Sequence record: PQ511148.1 | Strand: one strand, 5' to 3' | Length of the DNA: 64,000 nt | Origin: Escherichia phage NHEP10 | Shown here: positions 56,753-62,161 of the stretch, in pieces | Layout: the number at the start of each line of letters is the position of its first letter | Numbering within the stretch: the stretch's first letter is position 1 | Notes under the pieces: model-generated | Database searches by the model: none | What the model saw: only the letters and a program-made list of their open reading frames with translations | Told to the model about the DNA's origin: nothing | Program-made: the position numbers and the translations under genes

Positions 56753-56782
56753 ATAGTATCACACATCCATGTGTTTGTAAAC
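56753..56782 (-). promoter_or_regulatory. early-type promoter (GTTTAC-N18-TACTAT)
   Basis: -10 at 56753-56758, -35 at 56777-56782. Confidence 0.5.
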
Positions 56783-58869
56783 TATCCTTGGACAAATTTA
56801 AACGGAACTGATTCTAAATCCATTAAAGATGCTAACAATTTCAATCCTTTAGGAGCACTAGTTTTTTCTACAAATGAGGAGAACGATATCGGCTCATCTG
56901 ATTCGATTTCACCAGTCATAGCAACCACCTCGCCTGTTTCCATGAGAACATCACCATCGTAAATGACAGCTTCGTCCAACTGGTCCGAGGACATGACTTC
57001 AGCTTGAATAAATTTAAGGTTGGATTCTAAACCTGCACCAGTGTCAGATGACGCATCTGTAATTTTATTTATCTGCAAGAGAATGCCTCTAGGCAAAATA
57101 ATTTCTTGTTCATTAGGGTGATTACTCAACTGTCCTGGATAAATCACGTTAACTTTATGGGCGCCATCAATAGCCCATCCAACGTTAACACGGATTTGTT
57201 CTGGTGCATGCATAGCTGTTCTTACTTGACTAGGAGAAATAGTAACACCTTCGTCATTATTATCAATGTTAAGCTCTTTGCGAACTTCTTCAGGAGCAAG
57301 TCCAAGGGCAACGTTCTCTTTAAACCCGCCGAAAATAATAGGAGCTAGTGAAGTGGAAACATAGTTTCTGAAGTAGAATACCTTATTTTTAACCATTGCT
57401 TCGTAAATAGGCATTCTGATAGACTGAGCTCTATATAACGTTAGTCCTTCAGGTAAACGGTCTCCATTTAAAAACGCTGAATCAAGACCATCAATAGCGC
57501 GTTTAACTTCATCTTCATCTGCAACATCGTAAAAATCTGGTTTATAACGACCTAACAACATATTATTGATATCGGTATACGCAGAAGAGGCATATTCACG
57601 AATAGCTCGTTTTTCAGCAACAGAGTATTGTTTAGGGTCCCGATTCATTGTTATATTAAAGGTGCCTCTAGCCGATTCTCGTGCATAAGTATACATCACA
57701 TTAGACAAGAACGCTGATTTACGTTGTTTCCAAGTTCTTTCAGATACTTCAGCTAAAACGTCGTCGGCCAGTTGGAAATTATCACGTCTAAAATCTTCAA
57801 ACCATTCGTCTTTAATAGAGTCTGCAATTTCATTTGCAGCTTCAACAAAAGCAGCTAATGCTTTAACAGATGTTGTTTTTTCAGTTTTAATTTTCTTAGC
57901 AAACTTTTCTAAAGTTGGCTTAATAACACCACCATAAGAAACTTCATCAGCAAATCTAAAGGATTCATCAATACGATTATAAATCTTATTTTCGATATCA
58001 GCAACTAAAGTGCCTTTTGCTGTGGACGATGCTTGGGCTAGTACGATTTCATATGCTTCAGGAAGTAATTCGGCTGTAGCTGGGCCACTAACTTCTTTAG
58101 CAGAATTTTCGTATTTCTGGAATAACTCACCTTCTTGGCGGTCAGCTTCTAAAGATTGACTTGCTGCAATAGCACGACGAGAAATTTTAGTACGAGCAAT
58201 AACAGGCTTATCTTTACGTTTTTCTTCTACAGCAGCAATAGAACCAGCGATAGCCGTTTCTTTGGTGACCTTTTCGCCAGTCTTTTTACTCACATAAACT
58301 TCGCCAACATCAGAATCCACTTTCGTGTACAACTCTGTGTTAATGTTAGGGATGCCTTTAATATCTTCAATGTTGGCATTTTTACGAACCATCATCACAT
58401 AGGTGTGTTTACCTGTGAATTGATACATTGCCGACAATACTTTAAAACGACCACCGGTTTTAGTAGAAACTAAACGAGCAAGAAGAGTTTGAAGTTGTTG
58501 TCCACGTCCTTTCAATTTCTTGGTAGGGAATCGGAACAGAACTGCATCCATACGAAGAGCTTTAACCTGTTCATATACTGTATTGAAAATGGTGTTGATT
58601 GCATCAATAGGAGCAGGACCAAGGCCATTTTTCAATTCAGCGAGATTACCCTTTTCAGACAGACTCATAATAACAACATGAGCGTATTTGTCGCCAAGTT
58701 TAACTTGTTTTACAGCATCGCCTTCAGAAAGATAAGAGAATAAGCGAACTACGATGTTTGTATCAACATCACCAATTTTCCAGACTTGTGGAACTTTAGC
58801 TTTAGGGTTCAAATTGACGACAGGAAGACTGCCTTCAGATTCAAACACTTCATTTAATTGTTCAGACAT
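56782..58869 (-). CDS. alt: ADP-ribosyltransferase Alt
   Basis: 695 aa; R...STS...ExE signature (LYRAQ, YVSTS, NEQEIIL); synteny. Confidence 0.85.
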   Translation of the reverse strand: MSEQLNEVFESEGSLPVVNLNPKAKVPQVWKIGDVDTNIVVRLFSYLSEGDAVKQVKLGDKYAHVVIMSLSEKGNLAELKNGLGPAPIDAINTIFNTVYEQVKALRMDAVLFRFPTKKLKGRGQQLQTLLARLVSTKTGGRFKVLSAMYQFTGKHTYVMMVRKNANIEDIKGIPNINTELYTKVDSDVGEVYVSKKTGEKVTKETAIAGSIAAVEEKRKDKPVIARTKISRRAIAASQSLEADRQEGELFQKYENSAKEVSGPATAELLPEAYEIVLAQASSTAKGTLVADIENKIYNRIDESFRFADEVSYGGVIKPTLEKFAKKIKTEKTTSVKALAAFVEAANEIADSIKDEWFEDFRRDNFQLADDVLAEVSERTWKQRKSAFLSNVMYTYARESARGTFNITMNRDPKQYSVAEKRAIREYASSAYTDINNMLLGRYKPDFYDVADEDEVKRAIDGLDSAFLNGDRLPEGLTLYRAQSIRMPIYEAMVKNKVFYFRNYVSTSLAPIIFGGFKENVALGLAPEEVRKELNIDNNDEGVTISPSQVRTAMHAPEQIRVNVGWAIDGAHKVNVIYPGQLSNHPNEQEIILPRGILLQINKITDASSDTGAGLESNLKFIQAEVMSSDQLDEAVIYDGDVLMETGEVVAMTGEIESDEPISFSSFVEKTSAPKGLKLLASLMDLESVPFKFVQG

Positions 58870-58909
58870 AGTGTTTTCCTTTTAGTAATAATTTATATTT
58901 ATGCCAAAA

Positions 58910-58925
58910 AGAGCCCGAAGGCTCT
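58910..58925 (-). terminator. UUCG hairpin / terminator upstream of alt
   Basis: AGAGCC-UUCG-GGCUCU then U5 on reverse strand. Confidence 0.5.
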
Positions 58926-59113
58926 TAATCCACAATCGGGAGCAAAGTACGATAAACTTCAAAATTAGGGCCTTTTTCGTACCCATTAACGTTATCTACG
59001 AAAACCCGATACGAATTTTCATTAGGAAAATCTAATATAATCTGAGAGCAAGAGGTGGAAACATCTCCACCGTCCTTCTTAGCTACAATAACTGTTTCTA
59101 AATAAGCTTTCAT
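58925..59113 (-). CDS. small hypothetical protein, about 62 aa
   Basis: ATG at 59113 overlapping ligase stop; track start 59134 is GTG. Confidence 0.45.
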   Translation of the reverse strand: MKAYLETVIVAKKDGGDVSTSCSQIILDFPNENSYRVFVDNVNGYEKGPNFEVYRTLLPIVD

Positions 59114-60606: not shown

Positions 60607-60872
60607 TTGATGTCCTCGATTTTGGTTACGGTTCTATTATAAGCCACTTCATCTAGAAGCGATTTCAGCGTTTTCTGATAAGTGGTAATCCATTTACCAA
60701 GACCTTCAACATAATATTCTGAAATGTAGATGAACCCTTGTTCAACACACTCTTTAAATATTTCTGCGTCTTTTACTGAACGAAACACCGGCCAATCTCG
60801 AAAGAACATGTTAACGTGACCGTAGTCACGCGTTGTGTTTTTGCCATCTGTAATATCATGAACTACAAACAT
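60603..60872 (-). CDS. gene 30.1-like hypothetical protein
   Basis: ORF track; synteny. Confidence 0.6.
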   Translation of the reverse strand: MFVVHDITDGKNTTRDYGHVNMFFRDWPVFRSVKDAEIFKECVEQGFIYISEYYVEGLGKWITTYQKTLKSLLDEVAYNRTVTKIEDIK

Positions 60873-60881
60873 AATTAACCC

Positions 60882-61697
60882 TTAACAATTTACAGACCAA
60901 GTCCATTTGGACGAATCTAAAGGAAAGTTTTGAATCGTCCACCATGGCTGCATATTGGTTGGTCCTGGGGTTCGCCAGGTATACGGATTCGACGGACCGC
61001 CAATTTGATTAGGCCATGCACCTGGACTTGTTGTACCAGATTCTTTAAGCAAATCCGCCAATCGTTTTAAAAGGTCTTCACGATCTGAATCTGACTTATG
61101 CTCAGGTGGAACTAAACGAGATTCAATATCATCCCACGTGTGTACACGTTGTGCAGTACGAGGAATGGCATCACGTTCACCACGAGCCAACCAATAAATC
61201 GGTACATTAAGAATTTCTGCTGCATGGTCACAGTGATGAGCTAAATCGTCAACGTAACAAATCACGTTATATTTTGTTTTAGCTAGTTCGAATAATTGTT
61301 CCTTTGAAGAATCATGTCCACACATCATTACTTCAGAAAAGGCGCCTGGGAACAAAGCATTCAAATTAAATTGTCTATTCAATCGAGCATCAATTGAATC
61401 ACCTAGCGCCGTCACGGCTACAAAATTATAGTCTTCTTTTAGTTTATTGATAACTCGAAGAGCATCCGAATAAGGCGCTAAGTAACGAATAAAATCAGAG
61501 CGATTATATTTTTCTATTAATTGTTTACCGAGGTTATCGTCGGTATTGAATAGTTTACCAGGAGAAATAAATTTTTCGTCCTGAATCATTTTTAAAATAT
61601 GTTCTAATGGAAGATTATATTTTTGGGCAAAATATGGAAGTCCAGATTGCCAGCTTAAACATACACCATCAATATCAGTCAAAATAGTAGGCTTCAT
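60882..61697 (-). CDS. HAD-superfamily-like hydrolase (30.2 position)
   Basis: N-terminal ILTDIDGV resembles the HAD DxDG motif. Confidence 0.6.
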   Translation of the reverse strand: MKPTILTDIDGVCLSWQSGLPYFAQKYNLPLEHILKMIQDEKFISPGKLFNTDDNLGKQLIEKYNRSDFIRYLAPYSDALRVINKLKEDYNFVAVTALGDSIDARLNRQFNLNALFPGAFSEVMMCGHDSSKEQLFELAKTKYNVICYVDDLAHHCDHAAEILNVPIYWLARGERDAIPRTAQRVHTWDDIESRLVPPEHKSDSDREDLLKRLADLLKESGTTSPGAWPNQIGGPSNPYTWRTPGPTNMQPWWTIQNFPLDSSKWTWSVNC

Positions 61698-62161
61698 AAA
61701 GAGTCTCTTAATAGGTTTAACACATCAATAAATTCAGCTTCGGTTAGTATTGTATCATCTTTTGTTAGACCACTAGCCATGCTGTGCTTCAAAATTTTTC
61801 CTTTAGAGGCTTGTAAGGCATCACGAAACCCCTTGTTTTGGATCGCTGCTTCAAAATATGCATTTGTGTATAATTCTTTCCACGCTGGGGAGTATCTTGA
61901 AAACGGAACTCCAAGCCAGAAGAGGGTCCCACGGTCCTGAGCTCTAGCATAAGACCTTCCAGCTTGTTGGGCGGCAAGCCCGGATAACCCAAATATACGT
62001 TTTTGTTGTTCAACGTTTTTCACCTTACATCCTTGGAGAAATCCTTCAAGACCTCCGAATTGAATACCATCCATAACAAAAGGCCATTGAGCAAAGTTAC
62101 TTAATGCGCATGACGGCCATTTGAAATTGCTTCTTATTTCTAATTCACACATCTTTAACAC
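61694..62161 (-). CDS. NADAR / YbiA-like domain protein (30.3 position)
   Basis: LSNF..PF..DG..F...E.FLQ pattern typical of YbiA/NADAR proteins, from memory. Confidence 0.55.
   Translation of the reverse strand: MLKMCELEIRSNFKWPSCALSNFAQWPFVMDGIQFGGLEGFLQGCKVKNVEQQKRIFGLSGLAAQQAGRSYARAQDRGTLFWLGVPFSRYSPAWKELYTNAYFEAAIQNKGFRDALQASKGKILKHSMASGLTKDDTILTEAEFIDVLNLLRDSL

Follow-up and report, generated by a model that had tools for sequence, protein, structure and literature searches.

A full-length adfN-type NADAR gene in the alt/30 block of Escherichia phage NHEP10, a probable anti-DarT1 enzyme with syntenic neighbors

Close to its DNA ligase gene Escherichia phage NHEP10 carries, on one strand, genes for an Alt-like ADP-ribosyltransferase, for a HAD-like protein and for a protein which resembles YbiA and other NADAR proteins. 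What does the NADAR-like protein do, and do the three proteins act together? We analyzed these questions for a stretch of 64,000 nucleotides of this phage (record PQ511148.1; below called the window), in which the three genes lie between positions 56782 and 62152. A preliminary description prepared from the sequence alone had proposed that the NADAR-like protein might counteract ADP-ribosylating immune toxins. The three observations made in it from the sequence were confirmed, and chance does not account for them. According to our analysis it is highly probable that this block of a T-even phage encodes an anti-DarT1 enzyme of the AdfN type (gp30.3) together with a T4-type Alt and a phosphatase-type HAD enzyme (gp30.2). 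The counter-defence proposal matches published experiments on the 97% identical AdfN of phage T4 and is correct, and it is not new: AdfN and its mechanism are already known (published 2024–2025), and our analysis adds no new biology. Nevertheless, a reading of raw sequence without any tools had correctly predicted a real anti-defence function.

Compared with the Mosigvirus phages NHEP36, SF, PHB12, and Bas47 (AlbertHofmann) the region shows 96–99% nucleotide identity and the same gene order, and the source phage is a Mosigvirus, i.e., an RB69-like T-even phage. The open reading frame which had been described at positions 61694–62161 is real, but the sequence supports the ATG at 62152 as its start over the GTG at 62161. 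Thus adfN, the orthologue of T4 gene 30.3 (61694–62152, minus strand), probably begins at this ATG and encodes 152 amino acids, as annotated in T4, RB69, and Bas47. The protein matches the Pfam family PF08010 (Phage_30_3, "Bacteriophage protein GP30.3") over the complete profile (1–138 of 138) with an E-value of 1.1e-69 and 233 bits (cut-off 36). It shares 147 of 152 residues with T4 gp30.3 (96.7% identity on the protein level), and none of the five substitutions relative to T4 AdfN (S2C, R11K, R51K, V120I, I125M) concerns a catalytic residue. The catalytic glutamate and lysine correspond to E36/K43 in T4, E43/K50 in PnNADAR, and E88/K95 in the E. coli C7 protein (PMC11543638; for the roles in T4, PMC11825919). 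Both E36 and K43 are present in the protein of the window and are invariant among 50 homologues, as is the LSNF...DG...EGF motif. H123, located in the last strand of the structure model (residues 120–123), is also invariant in the alignment of the homologues. The C-terminal helix (residues 138–152), without which activity is incomplete, is present and identical to that of T4, and the T insertion known from RB69 is absent.

Single-sequence searches of AdfN and of gp30.2 against the PDB sequences and NCBIfam returned matches at noise level only, and family profiles and structure models were required to place both proteins. The AlphaFold2 model of AdfN has a predicted local distance difference test score (pLDDT) of 93.7 and a predicted template modelling score of 0.89. 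When this model was compared with the PDB using Foldseek, the first three ranks were taken by YbiA (2b3w; E-value 2.7e-5, template modelling score 0.67), PnNADAR of Phytophthora (8bau), and GlNADAR of Geobacter lovleyi (8bat). These three matches had probabilities of 0.99–1.00, and no other PDB match exceeded 0.1. In addition, a profile built from the 50 AdfN homologues matches YbiA at an E-value of 8.5e-4 with the catalytic glutamate and lysine aligned. To sum up, the gene of the window is the RB69-group copy of T4 gene 30.3 and encodes a NADAR-fold protein of the PF08010 subfamily. The LSNF..PF..DG pattern had therefore been rightly read as that of YbiA/NADAR proteins, and the profile search and structure prediction suggested as checks both support this fold.

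It has been reported that T4 gp30.3, renamed AdfN (anti-DarT factor NADAR; Johannesman et al., Nat Commun 2025, PMC11825919), is both required and enough for T-even phages to resist DarTG1. T4 and T2 become DarTG1-sensitive upon deletion of adfN, ectopic adfN rescues RB69, the mutations E36A and K43A weaken this rescue, and purified T4 AdfN takes ADP-ribose off DarT1-modified DNA (PMC11825919). In an independent study T4 gp30.3 hydrolyzed guanosine-ADP-ribose but not thymidine-ADP-ribose in vitro (PMC11125620). Moreover, insertions in gene 30.3 were depleted in a transposon screen of T4 on DarTG1 hosts (HIDEN-SEQ preprint) with a log2 fold change of −7.25. RB69 itself is sensitive to DarTG1: an extra T causes a frameshift in its gene 30.3 and the last 15 residues are lost. 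Phages with full-length adfN alleles, including the closest relatives of RB69, are resistant (PMC11825919).

In an infection by the phage studied here, host DarT1 would ADP-ribosylate guanines of the replicating phage DNA. AdfN, as a NADAR-fold N-glycosidase, would hydrolyze the guanine–ribose bond and free ADP-ribose, and with the template restored replication could continue on DarTG1 hosts. The protein would in this way act as an "orphan antitoxin" which does not bind the toxin. Because adfN of the window lacks the RB69 insertion and encodes the complete C-terminal helix, we infer that it is functional and that the phage is resistant to DarTG1; by analogy, both the activity and the phenotype of T4 AdfN should transfer to this allele. 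With an intact adfN, unlike the RB69 type strain, the phage should plaque on DarTG1-carrying E. coli, and the status of adfN is relevant to the prediction of host range and to the choice of strains for phage therapy.

The comparison with the known NADAR systems agrees with this assignment. With T4 AdfN the protein shares its length, the PF08010 match, E36, K43, and H123, the position between genes 30.4 and 30.2, and the overlap with 30.2. The differences are limited to the five substitutions, all of them conservative, and to the backbone (Mosigvirus here, Tequatrovirus in the case of T4), and nothing points to a functional difference. RB69 gp30.3 comes from the same genus and is nearly identical across residues 1–137, but in RB69 the frameshift has removed the C-terminal helix, whereas the allele of the window is intact. 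The fold and the catalytic glutamate and lysine are also found in the NADARs of the DarG1 type (BC4488 subfamily; E. coli C7, Geobacter lovleyi 8bat) and in YbiA (2b3w), and by analogy the allele of the window would carry out the same chemistry on guanine-ADP-ribose. The families differ in the residue of the last strand, which is histidine as a hallmark of phage NADARs, glutamate in YbiA, and aspartate in the DarG1 type (PMC11125620, PMC11543638); in the window it is His123. Profile searches of the proteins of the block did not detect a DarT-like gene in it, the neighbors of adfN are 30.4 and 30.2, and adfN of the window is therefore an orphan.

Some observations weigh against this reading. 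T4 AdfN is fully active only during T-even infection, for which its authors suspect an additional phage factor (PMC11825919), and the mechanism may thus require a further component. Although active in vitro, T4 gp30.3 gave no rescue of cells from DarT1 toxicity (PMC11125620), and it was unable to replace DarG1 in uninfected cells (PMC11125620, PMC11825919). Finally, the activity of the allele of the window would be carried over from the T4 protein, which differs in five residues.

Could the dependence of AdfN on T-even infection be met by the gene directly upstream? Gene 30.4 (62145–62360, minus strand; 71 amino acids; phrog_2042, 3.2e-35) overlaps with its stop codon the start of adfN (ATGTGTGA). 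Besides 30.3 it was the only significant gene in the T4 screen on DarTG1, with a log2 fold change of −1.79 and an adjusted p-value of 0.014 (HIDEN-SEQ preprint). Either polarity onto adfN or an accessory function of 30.4 could lie behind this signal. Since a polar effect is possible and since gp30.4 of T4 and of the window are only 46.5% identical, we assign a low probability to an accessory role for AdfN. That 30.4 meets the T-even dependence of AdfN, or that adfN is a recombination-mobile counter-defence cassette recently moved between T-even genera, appears rather unlikely to us as an explanation of the locus.

The sequence conservation around adfN bears on the second of these proposals. 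Between the window and T4, adfN has a nucleotide identity of 93.7%, compared with 63–73% (46–68% on the protein level) for the neighboring genes 30.4 and 30.2. The number of synonymous substitutions per synonymous site (dS) is 0.27 for adfN, 0.55 for gene 30.7, and ranges from 1.2 to saturation for all other genes of the block. The conserved island (61556–62154) comprises adfN and the 5′ end of 30.2 and is 85–98% identical to T4, whereas most flanking windows of 100 nucleotides are 40–77% identical. Within adfN a tract at 61887–61985 (minus strand) is of the T4 type, and not of the RB69/Bas47 type, at 16 of 17 informative sites; the flanking informative sites are mostly of the Mosigvirus type. 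In the phage database 592 records contain an AdfN which is 95–99% identical to that of the window, versus 142 for gp30.2. The low dS of adfN and the T4-type tract of about 100 bp suggest that adfN was recently exchanged between T-even genera by homologous recombination, a process which was also used in the laboratory to find adfN (PMC11825919). This exchange remains a lead.

The out-of-frame gene 30.3′ of T4 was considered as the cause of the nucleotide conservation of adfN and was rejected, as its frame is interrupted or its ATG lost and as the conserved island is wider than this reading frame. The counterpart of 30.3′ in the window (61789–62013, minus strand, +1 frame within adfN) is open with its ATG changed to ACG, and in RB69 and Bas47 a stop codon interrupts the frame. 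To judge from these sequences, the overlapping gene is not conserved and is probably not real. A second island is formed by gene 30.7 (62885–63250), whose product is 97.5% identical to T4 gp30.7 at the dS given above, while the adjacent gp30.8 is 40% identical. Selection or exchange of a similar kind may have acted on gene 30.7 as well.

We also considered whether AdfN has a physiological substrate other than ADP-ribosylated DNA, either in place of it or in addition to it. Intermediates of the riboflavin pathway as for YbiA, signals derived from ADP-ribose, or ADP-ribosylated RNA could be envisaged instead. YbiA is the closest solved structure, and NCBIfam gave a faint match of AdfN to a riboflavin N-glycosidase domain (E-value 0.15). 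For phage NADARs, functions in RNA repair or on small molecules have been predicted by comparative genomics (PMC9503650), and the titles of later publications mention NADAR activity on other ADP-ribosylated bases. In Aeromonas phage 31, Ralstonia phage RSP15, Brevundimonas phage Domovoi, and Rhizobium phage RL2RES a gene of the AdfN family is located in a tRNA gene cluster or adjoins a gene for RNA ligase 2 or a helicase. Such contexts hint that some members of the family have functions related to RNA or to repair. For the T4 orthologue, however, there is direct evidence in vitro and in vivo for the de-ADP-ribosylation of DNA and for counter-defence against DarTG1. This evidence leaves room for an extra substrate, but we regard a different or additional substrate of AdfN as unlikely.

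The gene following that of the probable anti-DarT1 enzyme is 30.2 (60882–61697, minus strand; 271 amino acids), whose start codon overlaps the stop codon of adfN by 4 nucleotides (ATGA). The HAD-type motif ILTDIDGV, which had been noticed at the beginning of its product, is real. All four HAD motifs are found in gp30.2, namely motif I (D8-x-D10-G11), motif II (T96), motif III (K132), and motif IV (D150-D151), and they are kept in 42 homologues: no exchange occurs at D8, D10, G11, or K132, and conservation at T96, D150, and D151 is 90% or higher. The structure model reaches a pLDDT of more than 90 over roughly the first 200 residues and matches HAD folds, being Rossmann-like with a cap. The profile searches weigh against the assignment: no Pfam model scored above its threshold, the best being HAD_2 with 15.5 bits (threshold 23.8), and NCBIfam yielded only 12.7 bits. 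The recurring matches of the 42 homologues were Hydrolase, NT5C, and HAD_2, all of them below threshold, from which we conclude that gp30.2 belongs to a divergent HAD clade. Of the checks suggested for the HAD fold, the Pfam profiles therefore failed to reach significance, whereas the structure model and the motifs lend their support.

Judged from the model and the motifs, gp30.2 is a diverged, Mg-dependent enzyme of the HAD phosphatase type with a C1 cap, the phosphatase type being indicated by the DxD motif in place of the dehalogenase pattern. By analogy Asp8 would serve as the nucleophile and Asp10 as the acid/base. With C1-capped HAD phosphatases (YfnB of B. subtilis, 3i76; the deoxyribonucleotidases 2jao and 3bwv) the protein shares the Rossmann-like core, the four motifs, and the helical cap after motif I; it differs from them by a sequence identity of 10–18% only and by a variable, disordered C-terminal tail. 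The helical cap argues for a small-molecule substrate. This substrate is most likely a nucleotide, a guess which is based on the cap and on a weak but recurring similarity to 5′(3′)-deoxyribonucleotidases. Eight of the 42 homologues match PF06941 (NT5C; best E-value 0.002), and the 5′(3′)-deoxyribonucleotidase 2jao matches gp30.2 weakly (E-values 0.35–0.49) with the DxDGV...W16 residues aligned. In the structure searches nucleotidases were not ranked above other HAD proteins. Disorder is predicted for the Trp- and Pro-rich tail (residues ~225–271; 60882–61025), which is hypervariable in both sequence and length across the homologues, in contrast to the conserved first ~195 residues.

The third enzyme, Alt (56782–58869, minus strand; 695 amino acids), matches PF03496 (ADPrib_exo_Tox) with an E-value of 6.9e-28 and 97.8 bits (cut-off 23.4) and is covered from end to end by phrog_802, the "Alt-like RNA polymerase ADP-ribosyltransferase" (4e-261). 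We aligned it with the Alt proteins of T4, Bas47, and RB69. The motifs YR479AQ, S505-T-S507, and E587-Q-E589 fall column for column on those of T4 Alt, in agreement with the R/STS/ExE signature already recognized in the preliminary description. Alt of the window is a full-length T4-type R-S-E mono-ADP-ribosyltransferase with an intact triad. T4 Alt travels in the capsid, enters with the injected DNA, and modifies arginines in proteins of the host, for example the alpha subunit of RNA polymerase (annotation of the T4 record; PMC9503650). Both proteins have the same architecture, triad, and genomic position, but their amino acid identity is only 42–43%, and the window lacks the alt.-1 and alt.-2 duplication of T4. 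In the RB69 record (NC_004928) a compensated frameshift patch at residues ~474–535 of Alt (compare window positions 57265–57450) replaces the catalytic arginine and the S-T-S motif; the stretch is intact in the window, Bas47, and T4. The patch is either a sequencing error in an old record or the sign of a crippled Alt.

Do Alt, gp30.2, and AdfN constitute one functional ADP-ribose module? AdfN could in this case undo collateral modification of DNA by the phage's own transferases, and gp30.2 could process the freed ADP-ribose or act as a partner of AdfN. The three genes lie within ~5.4 kb on the same strand, 30.2 and adfN overlap as described, and the adfN–30.2 pair recurs in T4-like phages of Escherichia, Klebsiella, and Acinetobacter. 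Alt falls into one R-S-E clade with the guanine-specific DNA transferases pierisin and ScARP. A partner would also be consistent with the further T-even factor which AdfN calls for to be fully active (PMC11825919).

The genetic data argue against such a module. In the T4 screen on DarTG1 insertions in 30.2 (log2 fold change −0.12, p = 0.61) and in alt (−0.01, p = 0.97) were neutral (HIDEN-SEQ preprint), in contrast to those in 30.3. Ectopic adfN alone fully rescues RB69; as 30.2 is intact in RB69, however, screen and rescue together leave room for redundancy. ADP-ribose is no phosphomonoester and hence not a direct substrate of a HAD enzyme. We further inspected 13 loci of other phages by means of family profiles. 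At every examined locus having gp30.2, its gene lies directly upstream of the DNA ligase gene with at most one small gene in between. This pair occurs without a nearby AdfN in Aeromonas phages avDM1 and 65.2 and in Shewanella phage Thanatos-2, and AdfN occurs without a nearby gp30.2 in the four phages with the tRNA, RNA ligase 2, or helicase contexts mentioned above. In Aeromonas phage 65.2 the gp30.2–ligase arrangement is kept, though the upstream neighborhood is completely different. The stable partner of gp30.2 across these loci is therefore the ligase and not AdfN, and the pairing of a HAD phosphatase with the ligase remains a lead. Where adfN and 30.2 are adjacent, as in the enterobacterial T4-like phages, the adjacency is shared synteny within the general T4-like gene order.

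The transposon data together with the synteny outside the enterobacterial T4-like phages also led us to reject gp30.2 as the T-even-specific partner of AdfN. The grouping of Alt, HAD, and NADAR proteins which the preliminary description had implied is thus positional and not functional, as the evidence speaks against a link, and a common module is very unlikely. The block is an ordinary syntenic alt/30/30.x block of an RB69-group T-even phage, whose three enzymes have no demonstrated functional link.

That adfN of the window is a dead allele like that of RB69, leaving the phage DarTG1-sensitive, can practically be dismissed, for although the phage belongs to the genus of RB69 and the databases commonly list variants of gp30.3 which are truncated or fused, the frame of 152 amino acids is uninterrupted by the extra T, the C-terminal helix is that of T4, phages with full-length alleles including the nearest kin of RB69 were reported resistant, and Bas47 has a full-length allele which is 96% identical. 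Natural variants of gp30.3 are in many cases truncated (83–126 amino acids) or fused with another 30.x family. It seems, on the sequence level, that T-even phages commonly lose or rearrange adfN and that RB69 is not unique in this.

In the order of transcription the minus-strand block at the right end of the window reads 30.8, 30.7, 30.6, 30.5, 30.4, 30.3, 30.2, 30.1, 30 (DNA ligase), alt.1, alt, and alt.-3, and this order agrees with RB69 and T4. The two enzyme genes 30.3 and 30.2 had been placed downstream of the ligase gene; on the coding strand 30.3, 30.2, and 30.1 precede it and are upstream. Gene 30 (59113–60606, minus strand), situated between alt and the 30.x genes, encodes an ATP-dependent DNA ligase (PF01068, 1.9e-26; phrog_114, 1.3e-154). 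Gene 30.1 (60603–60872, minus strand) lies between 30.2 and the ligase gene and encodes a DUF3045 protein (PF11243, 1.1e-26), and alt.1 (58925–59113, minus strand) encodes a small protein of the "phage blade" family (PF24647, 1.7e-28) with the length annotated in T4, RB69, and Bas47. A 30.5-like gene at 62362–62556 is found in the window and in T4 (65% amino acid identity) and has no counterpart in RB69, which makes the region a mosaic within the genus. When the window was searched for further ADP-ribose genes of T4, neither tk.4/adfM nor nudE was found. A scan for sigma-70 promoters gave 25 sites where 22.8 were expected, which is not above chance and is uninformative on expression. The leftward block ends with alt.-3 (56430–56723, minus strand), which encodes a DUF5498 protein (PF17602, 6.9e-26). 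Right after alt.-3 a hairpin scan detected a strong terminator-like hairpin with a stem of 10 bp followed by a T run (56401–56423, minus strand). At this hairpin the block of leftward early genes, converging on gene 54, runs into the rightward-oriented baseplate genes.

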